Assembly: GCA_040403315.1 (NCBI GenBank)
Contig: JBBAKX010000003.1
Location: 29,627 to 93,626 of the forward strand
Source of the DNA: Flavobacteriales bacterium
GTDB taxonomy: Bacteria > Bacteroidota > Bacteroidia > M30B66
Direction: 5' to 3'
DNA: 64,000 nucleotides
Shown here: piece after piece, positions 13,526-30,308 of the stretch
How the letters are laid out: the number at the start of each line of letters is the position of its first letter
How positions within the stretch are numbered: position 1 is the first letter of the stretch
The notes under the pieces: model-generated
The model's database searches: none
Told to the model about the DNA's origin: nothing
The model's input: the letters and a program-made list of their open reading frames with translations, nothing else
Position numbers and translations under genes: made by a program

Positions 13526-14590
13526 TCATTGAAATAGTCTGATAAAATTATCAGAATTCGATTCTACAGAGTAGTGATCAATGATTTTTTTTCTGGTTTG
13601 TTTTGACATTTCCCTGAGCGCTTCCCTATTTTGAAGCACTGTTTCTATTGCCTTTTCCCATTGTTCAGGAGTTTCACAAATAAATCCATTCAATCCATGG
13701 TCAACAATGCGCGAATTTACTCCTACAGGCGAAACCAGAGCAGGAATCCCCAACGACATATATTGCAAGGCTTTAAAGCCACATTTTCCATTTGCCCATT
13801 TGTCGTTCACCAAAGGCATTATGCCAATATTGAAGCCCAAAAGATCTTCAATTTCGGTTTCCTTTTTCCACTTTACATATTCGAGACTTTCAAGTTCAAA
13901 TTCTGGTTTCAAATCTGAAATCACGCGAAAGGTAAAAGTGTATTTTTTCTCGAGAGCCGCAAGCACTTGAATAATTTCTCCGATGTAACGAATGGTTGAG
14001 TGTGAGCCAGTCCAGCCAATTACAAATTCATCGCCCGATTGATCTTTCACTCGGTTGTGGTAATTGTTGGTATCGATTGTTGTTGGATTGTAAACAACGT
14101 TGGAGTTGAATTTCCTTGCATAATCGCACAGAAATTCGTTTCCACAAGATACTTTCCAAGCGTACGTGCAGATTTTGTGCACATTTCCATACCCTTTCAA
14201 AAACGAGAAAAAGCTATTTGCTTCCGAATAATTGGGAATCCAAATTGCATCATCGAAGTCGTACACGATTTTTTTCTTCAGCCAACGAGAAGCAAAATAC
14301 TCGAAAAATGAGGGGCCGATGGGCGTTGCTTCCCGATGAATAAAGATGTAATCGTATTGCTTTAGCTTGAAAAGCAAGAAAAATCGCTTGATTAATCCAC
14401 CTAGAATGCCAGCTGCTTTTTTAGGAAATCTACCCGGAAGATAAAGTATGTCCCAAATCTCATTGCTGAGAAATGGTCTAATATCGTATGCTATACCCTT
14501 TTCGTTGAGCAAATTATAGTATTGCTCAAAACGAAAACGCTGACTAGGCGCTTTGTCGGTAGGATATGGAACAATAAAAAGTATCTTCAT
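13526..14590 (-). CDS. Glycosyltransferase family 1/4
   Basis: MKILFIVPYPTDKAPSQRFRFEQY start and a C-terminal GT1 motif region (FKALQYMSLGIPALVSPVGVNSRIVDHGLNGFIC). Only 1 nt from the downstream GT on the same strand. Confidence 0.7.
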   Translation of the reverse strand: MKILFIVPYPTDKAPSQRFRFEQYYNLLNEKGIAYDIRPFLSNEIWDILYLPGRFPKKAAGILGGLIKRFFLLFKLKQYDYIFIHREATPIGPSFFEYFASRWLKKKIVYDFDDAIWIPNYSEANSFFSFLKGYGNVHKICTYAWKVSCGNEFLCDYARKFNSNVVYNPTTIDTNNYHNRVKDQSGDEFVIGWTGSHSTIRYIGEIIQVLAALEKKYTFTFRVISDLKPEFELESLEYVKWKKETEIEDLLGFNIGIMPLVNDKWANGKCGFKALQYMSLGIPALVSPVGVNSRIVDHGLNGFICETPEQWEKAIETVLQNREALREMSKQTRKKIIDHYSVESNSDNFIRLFQ

Positions 14591-16521: not shown

Positions 16522-17634
16522 ATGCAGGTAATTGTAACTGTAAGCAACGATTTGTTCACCGATCAAAGGGTGCAGAAGGTTTGTAGCAGCATTATTCATC
16601 GTGGTCATTCGGTTATGCTTGTTGGCAGAGAGCTCCCGGAGAGCTTACCGCTTAATTTACCATACACCTCAAAACGATTCAAATTGTGGTTCAATTCGGG
16701 TCCACTTTTTTATATCAATTTGAATCTGAGACTCATGTTTTTTTTGTTGTTCAAAAGGTGCGATGCCATCCATTCGAACGATCTTGATACCTTATTGCCA
16801 TCATGGATTGTTGCAGGACTTCGTCGCAAAATGCTTGTGTACGATACCCATGAGTATTTCACGGGTGTACCTGAATTGCAAAAACGCCCCTTGGTTCGAC
16901 GCATTTGGGAATCCATTGAAGGACTAATTTTTCCAAAGCTAAAGCGTGTGATCACTGTAAACGATTCAATTGCTGAATTGTATCGAAAACGCTACGGAAG
17001 CGAGGCAATACAGGTGATGCGCAACATTCCTAACGCACAAGTAAATATTGAAACTAAGCAAGATTTTTCATCGGTTTTCCCTCCGGGGAAGTTTAGGATC
17101 ATCCTGCAAGGCAATGGCATCAACGTGGATAGAGGAGGGGAGGAGGCCGTTGAAATGATGAAAGATATTGATCGTGCGGTGCTCATCATTGCAGGAAATG
17201 GCGATGTTATTCAACAATTGAAAGACAATGTTATTGCAGCAAAGTTGGATGATCGGGTTATTTTTATTCCTCGAATGTCGTATTGTGAGCTGCTTGGCTT
17301 GACCCAGCTGTGTGATTTGGGCTTAACTTTAGACAAAGACACGAATATTAATTATCGTTTTAGTTTACCCAACAAATTGTTCGATTATTTACGCGCAGGA
17401 ATTCCTGTCTTGGCATCAGACTTACATGAAGTTCGAAAGATTGTTGAAACATATAAAACAGGCTGGATAGTAAAGGATGTTAATCCTAAGTTGTTAGCCG
17501 ATCATATAAATCTCCTGATTGATCAACCTGATGTTTACTTGCAAGTAAAATCAAATCTCTTAGAAGCATCAAATCAATTGTCTTGGGAGCAAGAATGCAA
17601 AGTTTTAGATAAATGGTATGGTAACGTAAAGTGA
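16522..17634 (+). CDS. Glycosyltransferase family 1/4
   Basis: C-terminal GT1 signature NKLFDYLRAGIPVLASDLHEVRKIVETYKTGWIV. Rossmann-like N-terminal domain. Divergently arranged with the murB-side operon. Confidence 0.6.
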   Translation: MQVIVTVSNDLFTDQRVQKVCSSIIHRGHSVMLVGRELPESLPLNLPYTSKRFKLWFNSGPLFYINLNLRLMFFLLFKRCDAIHSNDLDTLLPSWIVAGLRRKMLVYDTHEYFTGVPELQKRPLVRRIWESIEGLIFPKLKRVITVNDSIAELYRKRYGSEAIQVMRNIPNAQVNIETKQDFSSVFPPGKFRIILQGNGINVDRGGEEAVEMMKDIDRAVLIIAGNGDVIQQLKDNVIAAKLDDRVIFIPRMSYCELLGLTQLCDLGLTLDKDTNINYRFSLPNKLFDYLRAGIPVLASDLHEVRKIVETYKTGWIVKDVNPKLLADHINLLIDQPDVYLQVKSNLLEASNQLSWEQECKVLDKWYGNVK

Positions 17635-17822: not shown

Positions 17823-18374
17823 TTGATCAAGACAATCATGAATAAATTAATTTCTACTTCGCTTATTTCGGCTTCGTTGTCTTTTTTGTTTCTTTCCTTC
17901 CAAACACCAACCGAATGGTTTAAAGGAGGGAATGCTGCAAAAAGCTATCAAATGGAAATTGATAAAACGAGTAAGGATGGATTAGCGATTTATAATCTAA
18001 AATCTATCGATTCGTTGATTACTGGCTTTGGATCGGTTATGAATTATATAGACCCTAAGCCCTTTCTTGGTAAGCGCGTTCGGATGACAGGTATGCTGAA
18101 AACCTTAGATATAAAGGAATGGTCAGGATTTTGGCTGCGAATTGATGAAAAGGATTCCAGATTACCCCTCGGCTTCGATAATATGCATGATGGTAGAACC
18201 GATCGATCCATTAAAGGAACTAACGATTGGAAGCGTTATGAAATCATTTTGGATGTACCTAAAGAATCTTATAAAATGGCTTATGGTGCTTTGATTTTTG
18301 GCGTTGGACAAATTTGGTTCAAGGATATCCAATTCGAAATTGTTGAAAAATCTATCAAAATTACTGGTCGTTAA
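17823..18374 (+). CDS. Hypothetical secreted protein (signal peptide, no recognised domain)
   Basis: N-terminal hydrophobic signal LISTSLISASLSFLFLSF. Beta-rich predicted mature region. Flanked by AT-rich non-coding DNA. Confidence 0.4.
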   Translation: MIKTIMNKLISTSLISASLSFLFLSFQTPTEWFKGGNAAKSYQMEIDKTSKDGLAIYNLKSIDSLITGFGSVMNYIDPKPFLGKRVRMTGMLKTLDIKEWSGFWLRIDEKDSRLPLGFDNMHDGRTDRSIKGTNDWKRYEIILDVPKESYKMAYGALIFGVGQIWFKDIQFEIVEKSIKITGR

Positions 18375-18886
18375 TGCATTTTTTTATATTCTTTAATTAT
18401 CATATCTTTAATTAATCATATTTAATTTGTGTAGTATTGATTCCGATTTCATCTGTCTAAATAAGATTATAGAATTTTCGAATTGGTTATGCTATAAATC
18501 ATACTAACGAGTGTGAATAATGTAAGTCAAATTTGATTTTATGTAATGCCGAATTCAAGACATTGTCTCTACTTTGTAATCCAAAAATAAACAATCCGAT
18601 TAGAGTTTTATTTAATAATATTTTCATTTAATTGAGTTTACTTGAGAATGTTCAATTCTGTTTTATTGCGTATTTATTTAAATTCAATATTTTTTCAGAA
18701 AAACAAACCATTTTCCATTAAAACCAGAGTTGTCTATCTCCTTATTTTTAAGCCTAATAAAATAGTTTGTTTTAATTTTAAGTTAAAGTAATAAACTGCT
18801 TGATGAGTAAATCATAATTAAAATTATTTTATAATTGGTCTATCGGATTATCCAAATTATTTTTAATCTAATTAATACAATCCACT

Positions 18887-19003
18887 ATGTCAAAAGAAAA
18901 ACAAGGCTCCAAGAAGTCCGATAAAACAACTGCTTCTAAAACTCCAAAAGAAAAGAAAACGCTTAAGGCATTAAAGAAAATTAGTAAAAATAACCAAGAG
19001 TAA
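18887..19003 (+). CDS. Candidate small ORF: 38-aa Lys/Ser/Thr-rich basic peptide
   Basis: ATG at 18887 to TAA at 19001-19003 gives MSKEKQGSKKSDKTTASKTPKEKKTLKALKKISKNNQE. Below the 60-aa ORF-track cutoff. Lies 12 nt upstream of the GH130-like gene in a 640-nt AT-rich spacer. Could be chance in AT-rich DNA. Confidence 0.25.
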   Translation: MSKEKQGSKKSDKTTASKTPKEKKTLKALKKISKNNQE

Positions 19004-19015
19004 ATAATTATTATT

Positions 19016-20056
19016 ATGTTGATTGTAGACAAACTTGGTATCGTGCTAGGTAAAACCTTAAATAGTTTTGAATGTGACGGCGTTTTAAACCCTGCGGTAA
19101 TAAAAGTGAATGATAAAATCCATATGTTTTATAGAGCTTTGGCAAAAGACAACTATTCTACAATAGGCTATTGTGTCTTGTCTTCCCCTATGGTCGTGGA
19201 AAGCAGAAATGAAATGCCATTACTTGTTCCACAAGCCGATTATGAGTATCAAGGTTTAGAAGATCCTAGAATTGTTCAAATTGATGGCCTTTATTATATG
19301 TCTTACACTGCATACAATGGTGTTAATGCATTGGGCGCTTTAGCTACCTCTACAGATTTAATGAAATGGAAAAAACACGGCATTATTGTTCCTCAAATTA
19401 CATATGATGAATTTAAACACTTTACCGAATCTAGTGGAGTAGTTCGCGAAAAATATAAACGATTCAATGCCCATCTATCTAGCCACGAAAAGCATGATCG
19501 TACAACTTTTATGTGGGATAAAAATCTTGTCTTTTTTCCTCGCAGAATTGATGGAAAACTCTTTTTTTTTCATAGAATAAAGCCAGATGTTCAAATTGTT
19601 GTTTCAATTAACTCGTTGGATGACTTAAACGTTGAATTTTGGCAAAGCTATTTCTTGAAATTTGATGATTACATAGTTCTATCTCCTAAATTTCAGCATG
19701 AAGTAAGCTATATCGGATGTGGATGTCCGCCAATTGAAACAGAGGCTGGCTGGCTTTTAATTTATCACGGCGTACATGATACAGTAAGAGGATATGTATA
19801 TACTGCTTGTGCAGCGTTGTTGGATTTAGATACACCTCAAAAAGAAATTGCACGACTACCTTACCCATTGTTTTTTCCCGAAAAAGAATGGGAGCTAAAA
19901 GGCGAAGTGAACAATGTTTGTTTCCCTACTGGTGCTATTCTTGAGGGAGATACTCTTTATATATATTATGGTGCAGCCGACGAAAGAATCGCAGTTGCGT
20001 CTTTAAAATTAAGTGAGTTATTGGCTGAATTGGCTTTAAATAAAATTAATAAATAA
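19016..20056 (+). CDS. GH130 / DUF377-family glycosidase or glycoside phosphorylase (beta-propeller fold)
   Basis: FECDGVLNPAVIK...HMFYRA...EDPRIVQIDGLYYMSYTAYNG...GWLLIYHGV...DTLYIYYGAADERIAVAS is the repeated pattern of GH130 mannoside phosphorylases and related DUF377 proteins. Confidence 0.7.
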   Translation: MLIVDKLGIVLGKTLNSFECDGVLNPAVIKVNDKIHMFYRALAKDNYSTIGYCVLSSPMVVESRNEMPLLVPQADYEYQGLEDPRIVQIDGLYYMSYTAYNGVNALGALATSTDLMKWKKHGIIVPQITYDEFKHFTESSGVVREKYKRFNAHLSSHEKHDRTTFMWDKNLVFFPRRIDGKLFFFHRIKPDVQIVVSINSLDDLNVEFWQSYFLKFDDYIVLSPKFQHEVSYIGCGCPPIETEAGWLLIYHGVHDTVRGYVYTACAALLDLDTPQKEIARLPYPLFFPEKEWELKGEVNNVCFPTGAILEGDTLYIYYGAADERIAVASLKLSELLAELALNKINK

Positions 20057-20059
20057 AAG

Positions 20060-22432
20060 ATGAGAACCGATATCGTATTGCATACGCCCAAAACAGAATT
20101 TTTAAGTCGCCCGCAAGTTTCTGTACAACTTTCAGTAAATCAAATGGATTCAATAGACGACGCGATTCTTCTTCCAGAAATACTCTTTGTTACATCATTT
20201 CCTTTTAGAGAATGTGGCATTGCAACATTTTCTCAAGATTTAATAGCTGCTTTACAAGATCAGTTTGAGCAATCTTTTAATTGTTCTATTTGTGCATTAG
20301 AATCTGATGCCGAGCAGCATGTTTACCCGATGCAGCCTCGCTTTATCTTAAATACCAGTCAACGAAATGCATTTGTAAAAACCGCATTTTTAATAAATCA
20401 TAGCGATAACATAGATTTAGTCGTAATTCAGCATGAATTTGGATTTTTTGCTGATAAAGAGCCTGATTTTAAGTTGTTTTTTGAAAGTATCCTGAAACCA
20501 GTAGTTTTTGTTTTTCACACTGTGCTTCCATCTCCTAGCAAGGAATTGCTTGATAAAATTCAAGATTTGGCTGCAATTTCTGCATCAATAGTTGTAATGA
20601 CAAATGATGCGGCAAAAATTCTTATCGATGATTACAATATTGCAGCTTATAAAATATCTGTAATTCCACATGGCACTCACTTAGTGCTGCCTTTAAATAA
20701 AAATACCTTAAAGAAAAAATATAATCTTACAGGTTTTAAAGTACTTTCAACTTTCGGTCTTTTAGGTAGTAGCAAGAGTATTGAAACCACTTTAATGGCT
20801 CTTCCAGAAATTCTTCTTCACCATCCTGATGTCTTGTTTTTGGTACTTGGGAAAACTCATCCTTCGATTGTAAAGAAAGATGGCGAAAAATATAGACATT
20901 ATTTAGAATCCTTGGTGTTTGAGTTAAAACTAGAGAACAATGTTAAGTTCGTGAACGAATACCTCTCATTACCTAATCTTTTGGAATATCTTCAATTAAC
21001 CGATATTTATTTGTTCACCTCTAAAGATCCTAACCAAGCTGTTAGTGGTACTTTTTCTTATGCAATTAGCAGTGGTTGCCCAGTAATATCAACTCCAATT
21101 CCTCATGCCAAAGAAGTTTTTCGAGATGGAGGAGGCGTAATAATAGGCTTTGAAGATAGCTTGCATCTCGCTGATGAAGCAATTGCTCTTCTCGATGACG
21201 AAGAACGTAGAATGGATATTTCATCAAATAGTTTCCATAAAATGGCATCCACAGTGTGGCAAAATTCAGCTATTTCTTATGGATTGTTGTTTGATAAATT
21301 AATTACTTCTGATTTTCATTTGAATTTTCGCATTCCAGTTTTTAATCTAAATCATATTCGCAGAATGACCACTGAATTAGGTATGATTCAATTCGCGAAA
21401 CTCTCGATCCCTGATTACAACTCTGGTTTTACTTTAGATGACAATGCAAGAGCGCTTATATCTATTGCACAGCATTATGAACTTTTTCATAGTGATAGTG
21501 ATTTAGAACTTATCAAAACATATTTGAATTTTATCGCTAGGTGCATGCAACCCAATGGTATATTTTTAAATTATGTTGATACCAACAAAGAATTTACTCA
21601 ACAAAACTACTCAGAGAACCTTGAAGATAGCAATGGTAGAGCCATTTGGGCATTAGGATACTTACATTCTCTTAAAAAAATTTTGCCAGATTCGCTACTT
21701 AATTTTTCCTTTGATTTAGTAAATAAAGCGTTGCCTCAATTACTGAAAATTCACTCTACTCGGGCGATGGCATTTATAATTAAGGGTTTACATTATATAG
21801 ATAATGAAGATTGTCAAATTGTATTAGAAGCACTTGCCAAACGGATGGCACTAATGTATAAACATGAAAAGAACAACCAATGGTTTTGGTTCGAACGTTA
21901 TATGACATATGCCAATGGACTTCTCCCCGAGGCTATGCTATGCGCTTACACAGCTACTTATGATGAAGAATATAGAATTATAGCATTAGAAAGTTTCGAT
22001 TTTTTATTGTCTATAATTTTGTCGGAGGATAAGATTAAGGTTATCTCTAATAAGGGATGGTTAATGAAAGATTCATTTAACCATTTGCAAATAGGTGGTG
22101 AGCAACCAATTGATGTAGCTTATACTATTTTAGCTCTTGAAAGATTCTACACTGTGTTTAAGAAGGATATTTACAAACAAAAGCTGAAAATTGCTTTTAA
22201 CTGGTTTTTAGGAGCTAATCATTTAAATCAAATAGTTTATAACCCTAGAACTGGTGGCTGTTATGATGGTTTAGAAGAAACGCACGTTAATCTTAATCAA
22301 GGTGCTGAATCTTCAATTAGTTATTTATTGTCTCGTTTAGCAATGAGTAGAATTTTAGAATCTGATAAAGGCAATTACATCTATGCAATTCCATCAACTG
22401 TTTTGATAATGGATGACACAGATATTTCTTGA
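20060..22432 (+). CDS. Two-domain protein: N-terminal GT4-family glycosyltransferase (about 400 aa) fused to a C-terminal (alpha/alpha)6-barrel glycoside-hydrolase-like domain (about 380 aa)
   Basis: N-terminal domain: ILFVTSFPFRECGIATFSQDL (GT4 N-terminal signature), then the GT1 core (STFGLLGSSKSIE...YLFTSKDPNQAVSGTFSYAISSGCPVISTPIPHAKE). C-terminal domain: DDNARALI, NGRAIWALGYL, WFERYMTYANGLLPEAM, LNQGAESSISYL, which resemble six-hairpin glycosidase/GDE-like folds. The fusion itself is directly visible as one uninterrupted ORF. Confidence 0.6.
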   Translation: MRTDIVLHTPKTEFLSRPQVSVQLSVNQMDSIDDAILLPEILFVTSFPFRECGIATFSQDLIAALQDQFEQSFNCSICALESDAEQHVYPMQPRFILNTSQRNAFVKTAFLINHSDNIDLVVIQHEFGFFADKEPDFKLFFESILKPVVFVFHTVLPSPSKELLDKIQDLAAISASIVVMTNDAAKILIDDYNIAAYKISVIPHGTHLVLPLNKNTLKKKYNLTGFKVLSTFGLLGSSKSIETTLMALPEILLHHPDVLFLVLGKTHPSIVKKDGEKYRHYLESLVFELKLENNVKFVNEYLSLPNLLEYLQLTDIYLFTSKDPNQAVSGTFSYAISSGCPVISTPIPHAKEVFRDGGGVIIGFEDSLHLADEAIALLDDEERRMDISSNSFHKMASTVWQNSAISYGLLFDKLITSDFHLNFRIPVFNLNHIRRMTTELGMIQFAKLSIPDYNSGFTLDDNARALISIAQHYELFHSDSDLELIKTYLNFIARCMQPNGIFLNYVDTNKEFTQQNYSENLEDSNGRAIWALGYLHSLKKILPDSLLNFSFDLVNKALPQLLKIHSTRAMAFIIKGLHYIDNEDCQIVLEALAKRMALMYKHEKNNQWFWFERYMTYANGLLPEAMLCAYTATYDEEYRIIALESFDFLLSIILSEDKIKVISNKGWLMKDSFNHLQIGGEQPIDVAYTILALERFYTVFKKDIYKQKLKIAFNWFLGANHLNQIVYNPRTGGCYDGLEETHVNLNQGAESSISYLLSRLAMSRILESDKGNYIYAIPSTVLIMDDTDIS

Positions 22433-22481
22433 ATCTATAATTAAGACTCCAGTTCCTAAATCATTATTGTATTATACCTTC

Positions 22482-22511
22482 AAAATGGAAGCAATAAAAA
22501 CTGCTTTCATT
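22482..22511. terminator. Candidate bidirectional hairpin between the convergent GT4-fusion and glgB genes
   Basis: AAATGGAAGCA-ATAAAAAC-TGCTTTCATTT. One mismatch in a 10-11 bp stem. U-rich on both sides. Confidence 0.4.
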
Positions 22512-24606
22512 TTGAATTATTTGCTTTTTTATCTGTTGTTTTCGTAGTTATTGATTTCAAGTTTTGTTTCAGAGGTTTCAAAACAATAACACTTAATGGA
22601 GGCAAATTTAAAGACACTGAATACTCACGGTTATTTCTAGCAATATTAGTAGCAGAATATTTGCGTATTTCGGAGTAATTGCTACCATTATATTTGGTAT
22701 CGTCGCTATTGAATATTACATCATAATCTCCACTTTTAGGCATCCCCATTCGGTAATTTTCATGTGGAACTGGAGTTAAATTCGCAACCACAACAACAAA
22801 ATCATTTTGATCTTCTGCTTTACGTAAATAAGATATAACACAATTTTTATAATCGCTTAGGTCTATCCATTCAAAACCTTTTGCATTAAAATCTAACTCA
22901 TACAAAGCCTTTTCTTTTTTGTACAATGCGTTTAATGATTTTATCAATTCTTGAATTCCTTTGTGCGGTGCGAATTCGAGCAAATGCCAATCTACCGAAC
23001 TTTTATAATTCCATTCACCATATTGCCCAATTTCCGAGCCCATAAATAATAATTTTGTTCCTGGATGTGTAAACATGCAGCTGTATAATGCACGTAAATT
23101 CGAAAATCGATGCCATTCATCACCCGGCATTCTTTGCAGCAAAGAGCCTTTCCCATGAACCACTTCGTCATGAGAAAGTGGCAACATGAAATTTTCATTA
23201 AATGCATAATACAATGAAAAGGTAATGTCGTTTTGATGGTGTTCGCGATAAATTGGATCAGTTCCAAAATACCGCAATGTATCATGCATCCAGCCCATCA
23301 TCCATTTCATTCCAAATCCGAGTCCGCCTAAATATACCGGACGAGAAACCATTGGCCACGAAGTTGATTCTTCTGCAATCATTTGGATTTCAGGAAAATG
23401 AGTATACATTGTTTCGTTTAATTCTTTCATAAACGAAATCGCCTCCAAATTCTCATTTCCACCGTGAATATTGGGCTCCCATTCTCCTTCTTTTCTTGAA
23501 TAATCCAAATAAAGCATCGATGCCACAGCGTCAACTCGAAGCCCATCAACATGGTAATATTCTGCCCAAAACATTGCAGAACTTATTAAAAATGCACGAA
23601 CTTCATGTCTACCGTAATTGAAAATTAACGACTTCCAATCAGGGTGGTAACCTTTCCGCGGATCTTCATGCTCATATAATCTAGTCCCGTCGAAATTCGC
23701 CAACGCAAATGTATCTTCTGGGAAATGTGAAGGCACCCAATCCATTATTACTCCAATTTCATTTTCATGAAAAATGTCAATCAAATACATCAGATCTTGC
23801 GGACTTCCGAATCTAGATGTAGGCGCGAAATAACCCGTAGTTTGATAGCCCCATGATCCTGAATAAGGATGTTCGGTAAGTGGCATAAATTCCACATGCG
23901 TGAAACCCATTTCTTTAATGTACGGAACCAATTCTTCTGCCATTTCGCGGTAACTGATGTAGGCATCTTCTGCATCTCCCGATTTTTTCCAAGAACCTGC
24001 ATGCAATTCGTAAACCGACCACGGTTGTTGCAAAGTGCCTCGTTTTTTTCGCGATGACCAACGATTGGCGTTCCAGGTATAATTCAAGTCCCAAACTATT
24101 GAAGCGCGCTTTGGCGGCAATTCGCTGAAAAATGCAAATGGGTCGAATTTTTCTAAAATGTAACCCGTTTGCGCGTTCCTAATCATGTATTTGTAAAGAC
24201 TTCCATGTGCAACGCCTGCAACAAAAGTTTCCCAAATCCCTGATCCATCTAACCTCGGTTGTAATTTGCCTTGTTCTGGATTCCAGCCATTAAAATCGCC
24301 GATTACGCTAACTGCCGCTCCATTCGGCGCCCAAACAGCAAAATAAGTTCCCTGAATTCCATTGTTTTCGCAAAGATGTGAACCTAATTTTTCATACAAT
24401 TTAAAATGCTTCCCTTGTTTGAATAAATAAATATCCATGTCAGAAAACAAACTGAAATGCGATTTAACACTGTTTAAATCAATATTATTTCCCTCCGGGG
24501 AAGGGGCCGATTCGATTGTTCTAGCCTTAGGTTTTAAAGCCTTTTTTTCGATTGGATCGGCTTCTTTTTTTGCCTTAGTTTTCTTGGATATTTTTTTTTC
24601 AATCAT
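22507..24606 (-). CDS. glgB: 1,4-alpha-glucan branching enzyme GlgB (GH13_9), with Lys-rich N-terminal extension
   Basis: GTYFAVWAPNGAAVSVIGDFNGWN (CBM48 region). GH13 catalytic regions GLRVDAVASMLY, EESTSWP, HDEVVHGK. About 50-aa N-terminal tail KKISKKTKAKKEADPIEKKALKPKAR. Confidence 0.9.
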   Translation of the reverse strand: MIEKKISKKTKAKKEADPIEKKALKPKARTIESAPSPEGNNIDLNSVKSHFSLFSDMDIYLFKQGKHFKLYEKLGSHLCENNGIQGTYFAVWAPNGAAVSVIGDFNGWNPEQGKLQPRLDGSGIWETFVAGVAHGSLYKYMIRNAQTGYILEKFDPFAFFSELPPKRASIVWDLNYTWNANRWSSRKKRGTLQQPWSVYELHAGSWKKSGDAEDAYISYREMAEELVPYIKEMGFTHVEFMPLTEHPYSGSWGYQTTGYFAPTSRFGSPQDLMYLIDIFHENEIGVIMDWVPSHFPEDTFALANFDGTRLYEHEDPRKGYHPDWKSLIFNYGRHEVRAFLISSAMFWAEYYHVDGLRVDAVASMLYLDYSRKEGEWEPNIHGGNENLEAISFMKELNETMYTHFPEIQMIAEESTSWPMVSRPVYLGGLGFGMKWMMGWMHDTLRYFGTDPIYREHHQNDITFSLYYAFNENFMLPLSHDEVVHGKGSLLQRMPGDEWHRFSNLRALYSCMFTHPGTKLLFMGSEIGQYGEWNYKSSVDWHLLEFAPHKGIQELIKSLNALYKKEKALYELDFNAKGFEWIDLSDYKNCVISYLRKAEDQNDFVVVVANLTPVPHENYRMGMPKSGDYDVIFNSDDTKYNGSNYSEIRKYSATNIARNNREYSVSLNLPPLSVIVLKPLKQNLKSITTKTTDKKANNSK

Positions 24607-24626
24607 AAGTTTAATGTTTACTGTAA

Positions 24627-26276
24627 TCAGGCATCCAAATAATGGCGTACAAATTTAACAAGACTTTGCAATGGAATTACTGTCCATTCTGGACGATTGT
24701 TTATTTCATACCCTAATTCATAAATTGCCTTTTTGAAAGAATACACCTGTAAAAGTGCATTGATTTTATCTTCATCTGGTAAAATATTACTTCCTGATGT
24801 TGTTTTGATGTATTCGCCTAGATAATAGCGACTTACATAATGATACCAGACATCAACTACCGCCATAAGTTTGTCTGTTAAATGCGGTTTATCAGCAAAT
24901 TCAGTAAATATTACAGAGTAAGCTGCATATCGAAATGATCTCATCATTCCAGCAACATCTTTTAGTGGTGGATATTTTAATCTCCTTTCATGGTGAGGCT
25001 TGTCGGGTTCTCCTTCAAAATCCAAAATAAAAAAATCATCCCCACTCATCAACACTTGTCCTAAATGATAATCACCGTGAATTCGGATTCTTTCTCCTTT
25101 CATTTCTCGCTGAAGCACCAAGTTAAAGAACCTTTTTACACGCTCTTTTCCTTTGATCATTTCTACAGCATCTTCACGCAGTTTTCCACTTATCCTTTCC
25201 AAATTGGCTTCGAGCATTCCAAATCTAGAATCAACAAGGTATTCGATGTCTTTTAGTAATTTATTTTGAAATGCTTCATCAATAGGTTCAGGATCAAAAT
25301 CAGAATGTCCTTGAGATTGGCTAAGTGCAAGATGCATTTCTGCAGTTCTTTTCCCCAAAAGGGATGCTTTTTTAAATACCGATTCACCCATCAACATTCT
25401 TAATTCTGAAGGTGTCTGTTCAAGGCCCAGCGACAGAGTATGAGGTTTAATTGGCAAAGGTTTTAAGTGGTAATCAATCTGAATTGCTCTTTCCAGAAAG
25501 TGCTTCACTTCTTGAGTGAAATATTTCCATGCATCACCATTATTCACAACCAATTCCTGTAACATCATTACTAACATTGGCCCCTTTTCAGGATGAATCA
25601 CCGAAATACTTCCAGCCAATTTTGGCAATTGATGAAAAGTGTTTTGTGCAGTCAACCGACTCACCATTTCATAGTCTGGATTGGTCATATATTCCACTTT
25701 TCTGAAAAGTTTCAGGAAGTACTTGTTGCCATAAATTATTGCCGAATTACTTTGGTCTGAATTTAAAACGGATGAAACTCCGAAATCTCCTGCTGAATCT
25801 TTTAATGATAGACCTTTATCTGCCGAAAGTGTGTAATGTTCACCTTTAATTTCGGTCGATTTTGATATCAAATTGGGCAATGTATTTCGAAAATCTTCGT
25901 CATATATAGCGTCAATAATATAGCCTGAATTAACTGAATTTTCAAGCCTACATAAAATGGAAATCGACGGCGAATGAAGTTGGTTTTCATTTACAAATGC
26001 CAGTGGGAGTGTGTAAATTTCTGTTGGCCCATCTGGATATCTTACTTTTAAAAGTAGGAAATGCACAAAATTCTTACCTGTTTGTACAGGAATATTTTGG
26101 TAAATTTTAATGGCACTGATCATCCTCGCCTTCCCTCCAAACCACCTGCATTTTCTGAGGTATGATGGTAGTAGCTGATTTTCTATTTGATGCACGTAAC
26201 GATCGTTCTGAAATAAATCATTCCATTCGCAATTCAATGTAGGTTGAATGGTGTCTTTAATCCTTGTATCCAGCAT
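24627..26276 (-). CDS. mak: Maltokinase (Mak/Pep2-like aminoglycoside-phosphotransferase-fold kinase) with N-terminal cap domain
   Basis: APH-type kinase motifs: IHGDYHLGQVL (HGD catalytic loop) and ILDFEGEP (DFG-like). Sits between glgE and glgB as in the GlgE pathway. I chose the ATG at 26274-26276 (MLDTRIK) as start. The ORF-track start 26327 would overlap the glgE 3-prime end by 40 nt. Confidence 0.6.
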   Translation of the reverse strand: MLDTRIKDTIQPTLNCEWNDLFQNDRYVHQIENQLLPSYLRKCRWFGGKARMISAIKIYQNIPVQTGKNFVHFLLLKVRYPDGPTEIYTLPLAFVNENQLHSPSISILCRLENSVNSGYIIDAIYDEDFRNTLPNLISKSTEIKGEHYTLSADKGLSLKDSAGDFGVSSVLNSDQSNSAIIYGNKYFLKLFRKVEYMTNPDYEMVSRLTAQNTFHQLPKLAGSISVIHPEKGPMLVMMLQELVVNNGDAWKYFTQEVKHFLERAIQIDYHLKPLPIKPHTLSLGLEQTPSELRMLMGESVFKKASLLGKRTAEMHLALSQSQGHSDFDPEPIDEAFQNKLLKDIEYLVDSRFGMLEANLERISGKLREDAVEMIKGKERVKRFFNLVLQREMKGERIRIHGDYHLGQVLMSGDDFFILDFEGEPDKPHHERRLKYPPLKDVAGMMRSFRYAAYSVIFTEFADKPHLTDKLMAVVDVWYHYVSRYYLGEYIKTTSGSNILPDEDKINALLQVYSFKKAIYELGYEINNRPEWTVIPLQSLVKFVRHYLDA

Positions 26277-26287
26277 AATTATTCGGA

Positions 26288-28246
26288 TTAAGAGATTGTG
26301 TTGATAGTTAATTTGAAAATGTGACAAGGCACCAGATCCGGTAAAAGTTCAACATAATTCCATTGTTTATTCCAATAATAATTAGAATTGTCCATCAAGT
26401 CTGTTAAATCTATCATTTCACCTTCAATTACTTGCATTTCTTTTAGTGGAAGTTTTACCCATCCACTTTGTTTGTTTGTCGGATCCATATTTATAATCAC
26501 TAGTATTTTGTTGCTCCCATCATCAGTCGACTTATAGAACGCCAATAACATGTCATTATCGGTTTCACAGAACTGAATGTTGAATGTACTGTGAAATGCC
26601 GAATTGTGATTACGTATAGAATTTATTTTTCCTATTAAATTGTGAATTGGAGATTCTAATCGCCAATCCCAATGGCGGACTTCATATTTTTCCGAATTGA
26701 AATATTCTTCCTTGCCTGCAACTGGTTCATTTACACAGTATTCATGAACAGGGCCGTACATACCATAATTGGATGATAGTGTAGCTGCCAAAACATACCG
26801 CATAGCCGCATGATTGGAGCTTGTGTTTTGCAAATATTCTGGCAGAATGTCGGGGGTATTTGGCCAAAAATTCGCTCTGAAATACTCCCGAAGTTCAGTT
26901 TGTGTTAATTGATTTAGATATTCTATTAATTCAGATTTGTCTTTTCGCCATGTAAAGTAGCTATATGATTGATGAAAACCAATTTTTGCCAATCGAGCCA
27001 TGATTTTTGGACGCGTAAAGGCTTCACTAAGAAACAAAACATCCGGATGATCGCGTCGCATTTCTGCCATAATCCATTCCCAAAAAACAAATGGTTTGGT
27101 ATGGGGATTATCAACTCTAAATATTCGAATTCCCTTTTCAATCCAAAATTTAATTACATATTTGAGCGCATTCCAAAGATTTTCCCAATCGTCGGTTTCA
27201 AAATGAATCGGTAAAACATCTTGGTATTTTTTCGGAGGATTTTCTGCGTATTGCACCGTCCCATCTGGCCGCCATTTAAACCATGATGGATGTTCTTTCA
27301 CCCATGGATGATCTGGTGAACATTGGTATGCCAAATCCATTGCAATTTCCACATTCAACGACTGAGCATGAATTATCAGGTTCTTAAATTCTTCTAAAGT
27401 GCCTAATGTGGGATTAATTGCAGTATGTCCACCTTCTGAAGCACCTATTGCCCATGGAGAGCCAGGTTCTCCCGGAAGTGCTGTAGTAGAATTGTTTTTG
27501 CCTTTTCGGTGCGAAACACCTATTGGATGAACAGGCGGAAAATAAACAGTATCAAAACCCAATTGAGCCAATCGAGAAATTATTGGCAAACAGTCGTTGA
27601 AGGTTCCCGGTCGATTTGTATCTGGCGAGGATGACCTAGGAAAAAATTCATACCAAGAACTAAATGAGGCTTTTAAACGATCTACTTGTACTGGATATGA
27701 TGCTGAACTACTAGCAAATTGCTTTAAAGGAAAATTTTCTATGACTTTATGCATCCTTTCGCTAGCTGCTGCCTCAACAGCTACCGCGTAATTGCCTGAT
27801 TCTAGCTTTGAAAGCAAATCCATAATCGCCTCCTTTTCCGCTCTTTTATTCGCTGCAGCTATTTCTTTTAAGAGTTCAGCACCAATGCGCAAGTCTAATG
27901 TAAGTTCATCTCCTGCTGCTAATTTCTTTTGAAAGCCTTTATACCAAGTCATCGCATGGTCGACCCATGCTATTACTGCATATTCGTAAGGAACTGTTTC
28001 TTCCACCCGAAATTCACCTTTCCAAATATCATTTTCAGTAATAAGAATTTGATTTTCAGACCACTTCTTGGTTCCCAGTTTTCTGTAAATCAATCTTGCT
28101 GAAATTATGTCATGCCCATCAGCAATTAGGTCTGCAGTAACGCATATAACCTCTCCAACTATCCTTTTAATTGGAAATTTCCCGCCTTCTACCTGTGGTG
28201 AAATATTTTCAATGACTACTCTCGCGCGTGCTTCGTATTTTTTCAT
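26288..28246 (-). CDS. glgE: Alpha-1,4-glucan:maltose-1-phosphate maltosyltransferase GlgE (GH13_3)
   Basis: N-terminus RARVVIENISPQVEGGKFPIKRIVGEVICVTADLIADGHD matches the GlgE domain-N signature (V.IE.VSP.VD.G.FP.KRVVGE...DGHD). GH13 catalytic core FRVDNPHTKP. Adjacent to mak and glgB. Confidence 0.85.
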   Translation of the reverse strand: MKKYEARARVVIENISPQVEGGKFPIKRIVGEVICVTADLIADGHDIISARLIYRKLGTKKWSENQILITENDIWKGEFRVEETVPYEYAVIAWVDHAMTWYKGFQKKLAAGDELTLDLRIGAELLKEIAAANKRAEKEAIMDLLSKLESGNYAVAVEAAASERMHKVIENFPLKQFASSSASYPVQVDRLKASFSSWYEFFPRSSSPDTNRPGTFNDCLPIISRLAQLGFDTVYFPPVHPIGVSHRKGKNNSTTALPGEPGSPWAIGASEGGHTAINPTLGTLEEFKNLIIHAQSLNVEIAMDLAYQCSPDHPWVKEHPSWFKWRPDGTVQYAENPPKKYQDVLPIHFETDDWENLWNALKYVIKFWIEKGIRIFRVDNPHTKPFVFWEWIMAEMRRDHPDVLFLSEAFTRPKIMARLAKIGFHQSYSYFTWRKDKSELIEYLNQLTQTELREYFRANFWPNTPDILPEYLQNTSSNHAAMRYVLAATLSSNYGMYGPVHEYCVNEPVAGKEEYFNSEKYEVRHWDWRLESPIHNLIGKINSIRNHNSAFHSTFNIQFCETDNDMLLAFYKSTDDGSNKILVIINMDPTNKQSGWVKLPLKEMQVIEGEMIDLTDLMDNSNYYWNKQWNYVELLPDLVPCHIFKLTINTIS

Positions 28247-28400: not shown

Positions 28401-30308
28401 TTGGATTTGTTACATTTGCAAAATATGCGCTTCGAGAAATCCAGTATGCCAGTTTCGGTGCTATTTTTAATAGATCTTGGTATTTGCTTTATTTCGGTTT
28501 TAATATCCTATCTGCTCAGGTTTAATTTCAATATTCCTGCTGAGGAATTTAATTCTTTGTTCTGGGTAATTCCATCATTGCTTGCTATAAGAACTATCGC
28601 AAATCTGATATTTCAAACACACCGTGGAATTATTCGGCTAACCAATACTTCCGATGTGCAGAGGGTTTTTCTTTCTGTAGCATGTGGATCTATTTTTATA
28701 ATGCTTTTTAACCCAATACTTTTTGGGATTGTAGGAACTTATTTAATTCCCTATTCAATCACAGTTATTGAGGGTGTTTTTACCATTTTCTTAATGGTTA
28801 CAATGCGAATTGGTGTGAAAGTCCTGCTTATTGAATGGTTTAGCACTGGAAAGGAAAAAAATAAAGTGGTAATTGTAGGTTCTGGAGATACTGGCCTAAC
28901 GGCTAAACGTGCGATTGAACGTGATGCAGGAGCGAAATATGTTGTTGTTGCATTTATTGATGATGAGCCCGGACGAAGAGGAAAGAAAGTGCAAGGTGTT
29001 CATGTGAAGCAGCAAACGGAACTTTTCGAGATGATTAATGATCAGGAGATTCAATTGGTTATCCTAGCTCGAACTGAAATTGAAGCTGATCAAAAACAAA
29101 ATATTATTGATGCGTGTTTAATCAACAACATCAAGGTGTTTTCGGTTCCACCAGTAAGTTCTTGGATCAATGGAGAACTTAGCTTCAAGCAAATCAAGAA
29201 AGTCAATGTTAAGGATTTGCTCGAACGCTCTATAATCGATATCCACACCGAAAATATTCGTAAAGAGTTACAAGGTAAATGCGTACTTGTTACTGGCGCT
29301 GCAGGTTCAATTGGTTCTGAAATGGTAAAGCAAATTCTACCTTTCAAACCTTTAAAATTGATTTTGCTCGATCAAGCTGAAAGTCCGCTGTATGAACTTG
29401 AACGTGAGCTGCAAGATGAACTGAACTATTCAGGATTTGAAATAGTTGTGGGTGATATTCGAAATGAAGCCCGAATGCGCAATGTTTTTCAGCATTTCCA
29501 GCCCGAATATGTATTTCACGCTGCTGCATACAAACATGTTCCGTTGATGGAAAACAATCCATCAGAAGCTTTGCTCACAAATGTAAAAGGCACCCGTGTA
29601 TTGGCCGATTTGGCTTCAGAATTCGGAGCCAAAAAATTTGTTATGGTTTCCACCGATAAAGCCGTTCGTCCTACCAATGTGATGGGAGCCTCCAAACGTG
29701 TTGCTGAAATCTATGTTCAAAGCTTAGGGCAAGTGAGTCAAACAAAATTCATCACTACACGATTTGGGAATGTTCTAGGCAGCAATGGATCGGTGATTCC
29801 GATTTTTGCTCGTCAGATCGAACGCGGAGGACCAGTTACAGTAACACATCCCGATGTTACGCGTTTTTTCATGACGATTCCTGAGGCCTGTTTGTTGGTG
29901 CTCGAAGCAGGAACTTATGGTCAAGGAGGCGAGATTTTCTTATTTGATATGGGAAAATCTGTAAAAATCAAAGACCTAGTTGAGAAGATGATAAAATTGT
30001 CTGGGCTCACGCTCAACAAGGACATTACCATAAAATACACAGGTTTGCGCCCAGGCGAGAAGCTTTACGAAGAACTGCTCAACGACAAAGAAAATACCGT
30101 AGAAACACACCACAAACGAATCATGAAAGCGCTTGTTCAGGAATTCGATTTTAAAATAGTCGAACAAGCAATCAATGAAATGATTCCATTCTTCGAAACA
30201 CAAAATAATGAAGAAATTGTAAAGCGAATGAAACTTTTGGTTCCTGAATACAAGTCCAAAAACAGCATTTTTGAACAACTCGATCAGGAGGAAACCAATA
30301 CTAATTAA
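28401..30308 (+). CDS. Membrane-anchored NDP-sugar 4,6-dehydratase/epimerase (CapD/PglF/WbpM family)
   Basis: N-terminal TM segments, then a Rossmann fold VLVTGAAGSIGSEMVKQIL. Extended SDR active site (STDKAV...YKHV). Family-typical about 630 aa length. Confidence 0.85.
   Translation: MDLLHLQNMRFEKSSMPVSVLFLIDLGICFISVLISYLLRFNFNIPAEEFNSLFWVIPSLLAIRTIANLIFQTHRGIIRLTNTSDVQRVFLSVACGSIFIMLFNPILFGIVGTYLIPYSITVIEGVFTIFLMVTMRIGVKVLLIEWFSTGKEKNKVVIVGSGDTGLTAKRAIERDAGAKYVVVAFIDDEPGRRGKKVQGVHVKQQTELFEMINDQEIQLVILARTEIEADQKQNIIDACLINNIKVFSVPPVSSWINGELSFKQIKKVNVKDLLERSIIDIHTENIRKELQGKCVLVTGAAGSIGSEMVKQILPFKPLKLILLDQAESPLYELERELQDELNYSGFEIVVGDIRNEARMRNVFQHFQPEYVFHAAAYKHVPLMENNPSEALLTNVKGTRVLADLASEFGAKKFVMVSTDKAVRPTNVMGASKRVAEIYVQSLGQVSQTKFITTRFGNVLGSNGSVIPIFARQIERGGPVTVTHPDVTRFFMTIPEACLLVLEAGTYGQGGEIFLFDMGKSVKIKDLVEKMIKLSGLTLNKDITIKYTGLRPGEKLYEELLNDKENTVETHHKRIMKALVQEFDFKIVEQAINEMIPFFETQNNEEIVKRMKLLVPEYKSKNSIFEQLDQEETNTN

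Follow-up and report, generated by a model that had tools for sequence, protein, structure and literature searches.

The locus examined here, part of a window of 64,000 nucleotides, raises the question of why a glycosyltransferase and a hydrolase-like barrel share one polypeptide, and on which sugar this protein acts. The open reading frame (20060..22432, + strand) runs from ATG to stop without interruption and encodes 790 amino acids, as the preliminary description of this DNA had stated; its division into two domains was confirmed as well. An N-terminal extension (residues 1-34; 20060..20161, +), predicted to be disordered (pLDDT <50), is followed by a GT4-type GT-B glycosyltransferase domain delineated by Pfam and fold matches (residues ~35-415; 20162..21304, +) and by an (alpha/alpha)6-barrel domain of an uncharacterised six-hairpin family (residues ~425-775; 21332..22384, +). 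The motifs that had been quoted are all present in the translated sequence: FVTSFPFRECGIATFSQDL corresponds to residues 43-61, DDNARALI to 460-467, NGRAIWALGYL to 525-535, ERYMTYANGLLPEAM to 612-626, and NQGAESSISYL to 746-756. A 100% identical copy of the protein occurs on contigs of two independent sequencing runs and assemblies. An assembly artefact, i.e. a stop codon or frameshift overlooked in the fusion, is therefore ruled out.

The best 120 homologues have a length of 750-831 aa and a query coverage of 92-100%, and the many full-length homologues stem chiefly from Bacteroidota. Because residues 1-34 were modelled as disordered and many homologues are ~767 aa long with 92% query coverage, M29 (ATG at 20144) is a candidate for the true start codon. 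Translation from there would yield 762 aa, and the region of residues 1-34 could then be partly untranslated. The fusion of the two domains is unaffected by the choice of start codon. The full-length model had a pLDDT of 89.4 and a pTM of 0.88, and its linker is ordered. Given this pTM of the whole chain and the ordered linker, the model implies a fixed arrangement of both domains and thus one compact body. A sequence check detected neither a signal peptide nor a transmembrane segment in the fusion or in the GH130 protein encoded next to it.

In the N-terminal half, Glycos_transf_1 (PF00534) matched residues 215-391 with 56.2 bits (cut-off 26.4), and PF13692 scored 46.1 bits (cut-off 27). The Glyco_transf_4 match spans residues 53-206; PF13439 reached 24.4 bits and stayed below its own cut-off of 28.5. 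The structure prediction displays the strand/helix alternation of a GT-B fold over residues 40-415, and Foldseek yielded target-normalised TM values of ~0.75-0.81 for HepE, MshA, PimB', BshA, and PimA. The Glycos_transf_1 score and the Foldseek matches agree with the earlier assignment of this half. It is thus classified, by profile and modelled fold, as a GT4-type GT-B glycosyltransferase, and the family predicts a retaining mechanism. The E-x7-E motif of this half is non-canonical. The positions of the two glutamates, as aligned to BshA and MshA, are P324-Q326 and Y334; both Q326 and Y334 reach a conservation of at least 90% across 66-68 members of the family, among them GT4 partners encoded by separate genes, so that a Q326...Y334 arrangement is almost invariant in the clade. 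Further conserved residues of the clade are H125, E126, H153, H204, G205, K239, H267, E276, Y278, R279, and D315, as well as S329-G330-T331 between Q326 and Y334. The region of the GR...K motif reads FGLLGSSK; K239 is invariant and a leucine occupies the position of the arginine. H267 and R279 are the other invariant basic residues near K239, and this region presumably plays a role in binding the donor diphosphate. Because the clade contains neither the two E-x7-E glutamates nor the GR arginine, an unusual sugar donor is possible.

For the C-terminal half, a barrel of six inner and six outer helices was predicted with a pLDDT of 92.9, and the (alpha/alpha)6 fold of the six-hairpin superfamily can be assigned confidently at the level of the model. 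The fold had thus been anticipated correctly, whereas the families named with it were not found: HMMs of GDE_C, GH63, GH15, GH37, and GH100 gave no match, and the nearest folds are different ones, namely AGE epimerases, GH9, and GH76. Scans of this half against Pfam and NCBIfam yielded no family match; remote fold matches include glucoamylase, GDE-type, and dextran-dextrinase barrels. The only close solved relative is YPO2471 from Yersinia pestis (7TEM, ~20% identity), a putative exported protein that stands alone and whose crystallised chain has no GT4 fusion; a literature search for YPO2471 and 7TEM returned no functional description. All other matches of the barrel-family alignment in a profile search against the PDB were weak (E 1e-4 to 1e-3). 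They fell on hairpins that have no catalytic role in cellobiose 2-epimerase or GH76, and do not support membership in either of these families. Catalysis in GH76 relies on a consecutive Asp-Asp pair. The barrel contains a conserved D460-D461 pair; the match of the GH76 profile (E ~5e-4) covers only profile positions 214-299, which form a non-catalytic helix hairpin. An AGE-type epimerase or isomerase was considered in view of the fold and of the known pairing of GH130 with epimerases. This candidate was rejected, since the barrel family has no conserved histidine, and the catalytic histidines of the AGE superfamily (cellobiose 2-epimerase, mannose isomerase) are without counterpart.

Conservation within the family is at least 90% for five carboxylates of the barrel (D460, D461, E612, D736, and E750). 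Together with R464, R527, N619, and Q682, they constitute a near-invariant set from Bacteroidota to Archaea, and the motifs DD..R, D-G, and N.N.GAES are kept even in the secreted Yersinia protein. In the predicted structure, the carboxylates coincide with the N-termini of alternate helices or immediately precede them. Six-hairpin enzymes have their active sites at such helix ends. Solely from the conserved acidic residues, we infer that the barrel may be catalytically competent.

The gene preceding the fusion (19016..20056, +) encodes a GH130 protein of 346 aa, which matches PF04041 with 178.9 bits. The fusion begins 3 nt past its stop codon, which bears out the immediate adjacency to a GH130-type gene reported before. 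The closest solved relatives are Teth514_1788 (9FJ8, E 8e-43) and Teth514_1789 (7FIP, E 1e-42); relative to these Thermoanaerobacter enzymes, the protein of the window carries an insertion of ~40 residues. Its EDPR motif, K169, H186-R187, and H251 are matched by identical residues in the alignment to those phosphorylases; we take K169, H186-R187, and H251 to be phosphate-binding residues. Its N-terminus is not hydrophobic. GH130 phosphorylases are set apart from the hydrolases of the family by basic phosphate-binding residues and by their cytoplasmic location (PMC4599007). The enzyme is hence predicted to be a cytoplasmic beta-mannoside phosphorylase. Specificity for the beta-1,2 linkage is only suggested, because the score for NF052550 (beta-1,2-mannobiose phosphorylase) was 188.6 bits at a cut-off of 450 and the equivalog level was not reached.

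The association of these genes was analysed in 80 related Bacteroidota-type loci, 74 of which could be assessed for GH130; L058, L070, and L080 belong to cultured species. In 62 of the 74 loci, the gene immediately upstream of the fusion encodes a GH130 protein. In nine loci none occurs within 6-8 kb, and the remaining three contain only a distant GH130 (~30% identity) downstream and on the opposite strand. The GH130 gene had been proposed as a neighbour worth profiling, and the conservation is stronger than had been guessed. In two Bacteroidales MAGs (L036 and L040), GH130, GT4, and barrel are even united in one open reading frame of 1094-1096 aa. Furthermore, the combination of a synthase and a hydrolase-like module, which had been regarded as uncommon, is the standard form of this gene pair across Bacteroidota.

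In all nine loci examined outside the Bacteroidota, which represent seven contexts, the GT4 is encoded by a gene of its own and the barrel gene comes immediately after it. Such split pairs are found in Dictyoglomus (L083), Bathyarchaeota (L084, L085), Thermoanaerobacter (L087-L089), Armatimonadota (L090), and Desulforamulus (L091), and also in L086, L092, and L093. The GT4 partner comprises ~390-450 aa, and the stop and start codons of the two genes often overlap. The Q...SGT...Y motif is common to the fused GT4 and to the partners in L083, L084, L086, and L087. GT4 and barrel are an ancient pair, which is encoded separately in Firmicutes, Dictyoglomus, Armatimonadota, and Bathyarchaeota and fused in Bacteroidota. 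No GH130 gene is present at the split loci of Dictyoglomus, Armatimonadota, L092, and L093; GH130 is a frequent, not an obligatory partner of the pair.

Two of the split loci connect the pair to mannose. In Thermoanaerobacter (L087), the gene order is ABC importer, GH5, GH130, GH130, a mannose-1-phosphate guanylyltransferase-like gene, GT4, and barrel. The two GH130 genes are essentially those of the crystallised beta-1,2-mannobiose and beta-1,2-oligomannan phosphorylases (662 and 666 bits). The Desulforamulus locus has the order GH130, guanylyltransferase, GT4, barrel, and phosphomannomutase, with a phosphomannose isomerase gene further on. The cluster of barrel proteins includes ADD01386.1 from T. 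italicus. ADD01380.1 has been listed as the homologue of Teth514_1791 (PMC4264767), and ADD01386.1 lies six positions after ADD01380.1; from this spacing, and with a homologue search and the genome context as further grounds, the barrel protein is identified as the orthologue of Teth514_1785, i.e. the Thermoanaerobacter barrel gene is the one designated "hypothetical" there. By gene content and orthology, GH130 and the fusion are to be regarded as the Bacteroidota counterpart of the cluster Teth514_1785-1789 of Thermoanaerobacter sp. X-514 (PMC4264767). Both comprise a GH130 of the beta-1,2-mannoside phosphorylase type, a GT4 with the Q...SGT...Y motif, and a barrel of the same family; the GT4 of the Thermoanaerobacter cluster has been labelled as such (PMC4264767). 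GT4 and barrel are separate genes in the Teth514 cluster, whereas they are fused in the window. The Teth514 cluster contains two GH130 paralogues as well as the guanylyltransferase, GH5, and the ABC importer; the window, in contrast, has the single GH130 with its insertion, and the importer and the GDP-mannose gene are absent. The enzymes assayed from the Teth514 cluster are its two GH130 proteins (PMC4264767).

We consider it somewhat probable (roughly 55%) that the GT4-barrel fusion and GH130 form a cytoplasmic unit that makes and turns over an intracellular mannoside and does not act on alpha-glucan. The product would be an oligosaccharide, a reserve glycan, or a solute. The reading frame, the two folds, the pattern of conservation, the gene order, and the orthology to the Teth514 cluster are established by the results above, whereas donor sugar, barrel activity, and product are what we infer in the following scheme. 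The fusion would be a cytoplasmic enzyme with two catalytic modules, the GT4 being packed rigidly against the barrel. GDP-mannose would serve the GT4 module as donor of alpha-mannose, with a cytoplasmic acceptor or a growing oligosaccharide as the recipient. The barrel might then cleave or transglycosylate this product, which would result in trimming or in the generation of primers, by analogy to MmpH (see below). Finally, GH130 would reversibly interconvert beta-1,2-mannosides and mannose-1-phosphate and thereby couple the pools of glycan and GDP-mannose.

A retaining GT4 cannot itself form the beta-mannosidic bonds that are handled by GH130, and the connection of the two chemistries is left unexplained by a mannoside model. 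A Pfam scan found no gene for GDP-mannose synthesis in the operon of the window; this speaks against a mannoside model, as does the fact that the GH130 partner is not universal.

The partnership of a GT4 with an (alpha/alpha)6 hydrolase has a precedent in the synthesis of the mycobacterial methylmannose polysaccharide (MMP), in which the (alpha/alpha)6 endo-mannosidase MmpH trims the product or generates primers for the mannosyltransferase ManT (PMC9883506). ManT and MmpH are both among the fold matches of the fusion halves. However, no relationship is detectable at the sequence level, the two mycobacterial enzymes are not joined in one protein, and the MMP cluster contains methyltransferases and no GH130. 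The cyclic beta-1,2-glucan synthase Cgs combines three modules, a GT84, an (alpha/alpha)6 cyclisation domain, and a GH94 phosphorylase. All three belong to families other than those of the window (GT84 versus GT4, GH94 versus GH130); moreover, Cgs is a membrane protein that acts on glucose, whereas the fusion is soluble and linked to mannose. A literature search on GH130 with GT4 returned no paper that describes the fusion or the barrel family. As a tentative and rather unlikely extension, the trio might operate as an autonomous machinery for a cytoplasmic beta-1,2-mannan similar to mannogen, or for a manno-oligosaccharide that is cyclic or carries a cap. This machinery would be widespread among Bacteria as well as Archaea, with Asgard and Bathyarchaeota lineages among the latter. 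The primer or cap would come from the GT4, GH130 would lengthen and shorten the chain by means of mannose-1-phosphate, and the barrel would represent a new family of glycoside hydrolases or transglycosylases that sets the chain length or closes rings. If true, the trio would parallel cyclic beta-1,2-glucan synthase, with mannose in place of glucose, and would correspond in prokaryotes to the mannogen cycling of Leishmania.

Alternatively, the fusion could unite synthesis and hydrolysis of a compatible solute on one chain: the GT4 would make a glycoside resembling mannosyl- or glucosyl-glycerate, sucrose, or trehalose, and the barrel would hydrolyse it after stress, as GH63, GH37, GH15, and GH100 do. 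Solute synthases do occur in GT4, sucrose-phosphate synthase ranks 23rd in the Foldseek search, and the operon Teth514_1785-1787 was reported to be expressed more highly at 6% ethanol in a strain adapted to ethanol (PMC3751872). In four lineages, the pair is followed by CBS-domain proteins, possible sensors of metabolites or ionic strength. We nevertheless regard this explanation as unlikely. The barrel has no match to GH63, GH37, GH15, or GH100 at the sequence level, the steadiest partner of the pair is a phosphorylase active on polymers or oligomers, and the phosphatase gene of a two-step pathway is found neither in the operon of the window nor at the nine split loci. Making and hydrolysing the same compound on one rigid chain would also be futile unless regulated.

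According to the model of Chiku 2014, imported beta-1,2-mannan would be salvaged to GDP-mannose for envelope glycans. GH130 would release mannose-1-phosphate, the GT4 would be an ordinary alpha-mannosyltransferase for a surface glycan, and the barrel an accessory. This agrees with the arrangement in Thermoanaerobacter, where a LacI regulator, the ABC importer, and the GH5 mannosidase adjoin the GH130 genes, the guanylyltransferase, the GT4, and the barrel (PMC4264767), and with envelope-polysaccharide genes near the module in the window (two more GT4, murB, and a CapD-like gene). At the 80 Bacteroidota-type loci, however, the module has no conserved neighbour of the importer, SusC/D, or GH5 kind, and GT4 and barrel are soluble proteins devoid of a membrane segment. 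Since a generic envelope transferase would furthermore leave the obligate pairing of GT4 and barrel and their fusions unexplained, we judge salvage to be distinctly unlikely.

The barrel could also be non-catalytic and assist the GT4 as a scaffold that binds glycan or has a regulatory function, in the manner of the GH15-like domains found in the alpha and beta subunits of phosphorylase kinase. Against this improbable role speaks the set of near-invariant acidic and polar residues that extends from Bacteroidota to Archaea and is in part kept in the Yersinia protein. In the model, these residues are moreover placed at the helix ends where an active site of this superfamily would be expected.

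The genes glgB (22507-24606), mak (24627-26327), and glgE (26288-28246), all on the - strand, converge on the fusion, as their coordinates confirm. A terminator-like hairpin (22479..22516), which is a consensus match only, begins within the 74 nt that separate the fusion from its convergent neighbour glgB and enters the 3' end of glgB by 10 nt. That the GT4 makes maltose-1-phosphate or a primer and the barrel trims alpha-glucan in a GlgE-linked remodelling is highly improbable: although the convergent arrangement is shared by the closest relative (L003) and the remote fold matches include the barrels named above, glgE, mak, and glgB are absent within 8 kb in the other 79 loci, the glg genes lie on the opposite strand beyond the hairpin, GlgM is just the 22nd fold match of the GT4 half (13% identity) and no GlgM-type NCBIfam model matches the fusion, and the conserved partners are genes of the mannose pathway. 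The linkage to glgE proposed for profiling thus proved to be incidental, and the hint at a GlgM-type enzyme lost its basis, GlgM being no closer than other GT4 enzymes.

If the mannoside reading is true, many prokaryotes possess an unrecognised cytoplasmic mannoside pathway, and the beta-1,2-mannoside phosphorylases, so far studied only in vitro, gain a physiological role. The database names of standalone barrel proteins, currently "glycosyltransferase" or "beta-L-arabinofuranosidase domain-containing protein", could then be corrected. Owing to the fusions, one or two recombinant proteins would suffice for a direct test of the functional link.

Upstream of GH130 lies an AT-rich intergenic region of 640 bp (18375..19015), which contains no open reading frame of at least 100 aa and is presumed to harbour the promoter and regulatory region of a two-gene operon. 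The GC content is 0.32 at 18001-20000 and ~0.39 in the window; the base composition gave no clear sign of recent transfer. A sigma-70 promoter scan detected fewer sites than in shuffled sequence. A small lysine-rich open reading frame of 38 aa (18887..19003, +) ends 12 nt before the GH130 start codon. Comparable small frames directly upstream of GH130 occur in L003, L007, and L008; their low-complexity sequence makes this weak evidence, and it is uncertain whether the 38-aa frame is part of the module. The only other recurring neighbour across the 80 loci is an AraC-type regulator, which is present in ~19 of them.

The fusion gene is uninterrupted, as stated in the preliminary description, and runs from ATG to stop at 20060-22432 (+), encoding 790 aa; all motifs quoted for it were found at the expected positions. 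The neighbours assigned to it, a GH130 gene directly before and convergent glgB, mak and glgE genes after, were confirmed. The stop codon of the GH130 gene (19016-20056, +) lies 3 nt before the fusion start, and 74 nt separate the fusion end from the stop of glgB; mak and glgE come next. A terminator-like hairpin begins in this gap and extends over the final 10 nt of glgB. The same 790-aa protein (100% identical) occurs on contigs of two independent sequencing runs, and the 120 best homologues in the database are 750-831 aa long at a query coverage of 92-100%. A frameshift, which had been considered as an origin of the fusion, and an assembly artefact are therefore excluded. Residues 1-34 are disordered in the model and many homologues comprise about 767 aa; translation may in fact begin at M29 (20144), and this would alter nothing essential. 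A lysine-rich small ORF of 38 aa (MSKEKQGSKKSDKTTASKTPKEKKTLKALKKISKNNQE; 18887-19003, +) stops 12 nt short of the GH130 start. Comparable small ORFs are located immediately 5' of GH130 in three of the compared loci (L003, L007, L008); this conservation may be compositional, the sequence being of low complexity.

The N-terminal half matches Pfam Glycos_transf_1 at residues 215-391 (56.2 bits; cut-off 26.4) and, more weakly, Glyco_transf_4 at residues 53-206. In the full-length model (pLDDT 89.4) it forms two Rossmann-like lobes, whose nearest solved folds all belong to GT4 (HepE, MshA, PimB', BshA, PimA). The earlier GT4 call thus holds for the fold and the Glycos_transf_1 match, but the canonical E-x7-E is absent from this half: in an alignment with BshA and MshA, the two positions are Q326 and Y334. 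Both are almost invariant within the GT4 clade, in which the usual GR...K arginine is replaced by a leucine and K239 is kept. Judged from these replacements, the N-terminal half represents a divergent clade of GT4-type GT-B enzymes and has a predicted atypical donor site.

For the C-terminal half, no match was obtained in Pfam or NCBIfam scans, and the specific hydrolase families proposed for it (GDE_C, GH63, GH15, GH37, GH100) are unsupported. The suggested (alpha/alpha)6 fold was borne out by a confident model (pLDDT 92.9, pTM 0.91), which was based on 41 aligned standalone homologues and consists of about twelve long helices. In a sequence-profile search, the sole real relative of this barrel was 7TEM, the crystal structure of Yersinia pestis YPO2471 (E 1.9e-28), with which it has several conserved polar motifs in common. 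The matches of the profile to epimerases and GH76 (E 1e-4 to 1e-3) comprise generic helix hairpins only. The fold matches extend to many other (alpha/alpha)6 enzymes, among them MmpH, glucoamylases, the cyclisation domain of cyclic glucan synthase, GH88, GH8 and GH63. The conserved polar residues D460, D461, N462, R464, R527, R568, W608, W610, E612, Y617, N619, Q682, D736, N744, N746 and E750 are placed in the predicted model at the N-terminal ends of alternate helices, which is where six-hairpin enzymes build their active site. An AGE-type epimerase mechanism was ruled out, as the barrel family is devoid of any conserved histidine. The whole-chain model (pTM 0.88) and its ordered linker (pLDDT about 89-97 near residues 410-430) indicate that the two modules are packed as one body and not on a flexible tether. 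Neither the fusion protein nor the window GH130 contains a signal peptide or membrane segment. The fusion protein is a soluble, rigid two-module enzyme.

With the barrel alone as query, 2,928 representatives of 50%-identity clusters were obtained, 509 of them at E <= 1e-30; the best 150 matches include about 64 fusions (700-830 aa) and 47 standalone proteins (340-405 aa). The best 80 loci of a species-level genome collection stem nearly all from Bacteroidota (Flavobacterium, Cytophagales, Chitinophagales, Bacteroidales, Prevotella, Porphyromonas), the exceptions being one Ignavibacteria MAG and one Syntrophobacterales MAG, and every assessable locus contains the fused form. GH130, of the beta-1,2-mannoside phosphorylase type, is often coupled to the GT4-barrel pair: 62 of the 74 assessable loci have it immediately upstream and in the same orientation, three contain only a distantly related GH130 downstream, and nine have none within 8 kb. 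Sometimes it is even fused. In two Bacteroidales/Muribaculaceae MAGs (L036, 5799-9089; L040, 5799-9083), the whole module of GH130, GT4 and barrel is a single ORF of 1096 and 1094 aa, respectively. Besides GH130, the only conserved neighbour in the 80 loci is an AraC-family HTH gene of about 185 aa (about 19 loci, for example L052, 6450-7007; absent from the window). In Bacteroidota loci it often follows the fusion gene at a distance of no more than about 100 bp, and its product is a candidate regulator.

Standalone barrels were compared in nine loci representing seven contexts, namely Dictyoglomus, Bathyarchaeota, the locus L086, Thermoanaerobacter, Armatimonadota, Desulforamulus and the related metagenomic contigs L092/L093. 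In all nine, a GT4 gene (about 390-450 aa) directly precedes the barrel gene, and the stop codon of the one and the start codon of the other often overlap. The motif Q...SGT...Y is common to the GT4 partners in L083 (Dictyoglomus), L084 (Bathyarchaeota), L086 and L087 (Thermoanaerobacter). Of the seven contexts, four have GH130 at a distance of up to 6 kb. GT4 and barrel therefore constitute the invariant core, an ancient and obligatory pairing, to which GH130 is a frequent but not obligatory addition. A CBS-domain gene (131-149 aa), also present in four of the seven contexts, is located directly 3' of the pair in L084 (3556-3951), L086 (7114-7527), L090 (7080-7526) and L093 (7072-7521); its product may regulate the module by sensing nucleotides. 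These loci are archaeal, from Armatimonadota and others, and in two of the four the CBS-domain gene is followed by GH130.

In Firmicutes, genes for GDP-mannose synthesis are co-located with the pair. The order in L087 is LacI, ABC importer, GH5, GH130, GH130, a mannose-1-phosphate guanylyltransferase-like gene, GT4 and barrel. The two GH130 proteins are essentially those of 7FIP (beta-1,2-mannobiose phosphorylase, 662 bits) and 9FJ8 (beta-1,2-oligomannan phosphorylase, 666 bits), that is, Teth514_1789 and Teth514_1788 of Chiku et al. 2014 (PMC4264767). The 90% cluster of the L087 barrel protein contains T. italicus ADD01386.1, six accession positions past ADD01380.1, which is listed as the homologue of Teth514_1791 in a table of PMC4264767. 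By this count, the barrel is the "hypothetical protein" Teth514_1785 and the GT4 Teth514_1786. In one transcriptome study (PMC3751872), an ethanol-adapted strain is reported to express Teth514_1785-1787 more highly at 6% ethanol. The Desulforamulus locus comprises, in this order, GH130, guanylyltransferase, GT4, barrel and phosphomannomutase, with phosphomannose isomerase 2 kb beyond; it encodes the full route from fructose-6-phosphate to GDP-mannose. The window GH130 is nearest to both Teth514 phosphorylases (E about 1e-42) and retains their EDPR motif, as well as basic residues that align with those of the two enzymes; against the NCBIfam equivalog it scores 188.6, below the cut-off of 450. 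Compared to the Teth514 phosphorylases, it carries an insertion of about 40 residues between two aligned blocks (residues ~128-168; 19397-19519).

As a general model, we favour a module for mannosides, not connected with glucan, whose barrel is active, at a probability of roughly 0.55; any single specific reaction is rated far lower. The GT4 would transfer alpha-mannose from GDP-mannose onto a cytoplasmic acceptor or chain, and the barrel would cleave or transglycosylate this product, resulting in trimming or primers. GH130 would reversibly exchange beta-1,2-mannosides and mannose-1-phosphate, and the three could form a cytoplasmic unit of mannoside synthesis and turnover. The best precedent for a partnership of GT4 and (alpha/alpha)6 modules is ManT and MmpH of mycobacterial methylmannose polysaccharide synthesis (PMC9883506); both structures are among the fold matches of the window protein. 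Difficulties for the model are the atypical donor site and the inability of a retaining GT4 to form the beta-linkages on which GH130 acts. A compatible-solute synthase and hydrolase on one chain, as envisaged in the preliminary description, would agree with the class of fold, the induction under stress and the presence of CBS partners; this reading is nevertheless improbable, given the GH130 partner and the missing family-level similarity. Slightly less probable is the salvage model of Chiku et al. combined with a generic envelope transferase, which accounts for Thermoanaerobacter but neither for Bacteroidota operons without a transporter nor for the obligate pairing. The conserved carboxylates oppose a non-catalytic barrel, to which we give a little less credit still. 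A link to GlgE and alpha-glucan, proposed from the window, is highly improbable and contradicted by synteny: among the best 80 loci, glgE, mak and glgB are near the fusion only in the closest relative, L003.

The barrel/fusion gene family is abundant and already deposited in databases, with names that are uninformative or wrong; a discovery can therefore not be claimed for the gene itself. Standalone barrels (P0272, P0286, P0404, P0463 and P0474) are named inconsistently: proteins of 337-387 aa without a GT domain are called "glycosyltransferase", and the Thermoanaerobacter orthologues "beta-L-arabinofuranosidase domain-containing protein" or "YyaL (SSP411 family)". Four points appear to be undescribed in the searched literature: that the barrel constitutes a family of its own, that it is obligately paired with a divergent clade of GT4, that fusions of two and of three modules exist, and that Teth514_1785 is a member of the family. 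Being a multi-module carbohydrate-active enzyme, the fusion belongs to a known kind and is no surprise in that respect. The module offers a good, cheaply testable lead to a novel family of glycoside hydrolases and to a mannoside pathway so far unrecognised in prokaryotes.

The glgB-mak-glgE block of the window (22507-28246, -) is complete and, in an apparent Bacteroidota genome, corresponds to a GlgE-type alpha-glucan pathway; no treS catalytic domain was seen within it. The longest mak ORF has a TTG start and a 40-nt overlap with glgE, and in the gene calls of locus L001 mak starts later (549 aa). Just upstream of the fusion module, beside murB and a DUF4199 gene, lie two further GT4-type genes (16522-17634, +; 13526-14590, -) and a 183-aa ORF without a Pfam match (17823-18374, +). 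The GT4 gene at 16522, murB and the DUF4199 gene are syntenic only in L003. A VTC-domain protein (31397-32179, +) and, after it, a DUF4956 protein (seen in L001) make up a pair that is usually tied to polyphosphate; they lie downstream of a CapD-like gene for polysaccharide biosynthesis (28401-30308) and of a 4HBT thioesterase.
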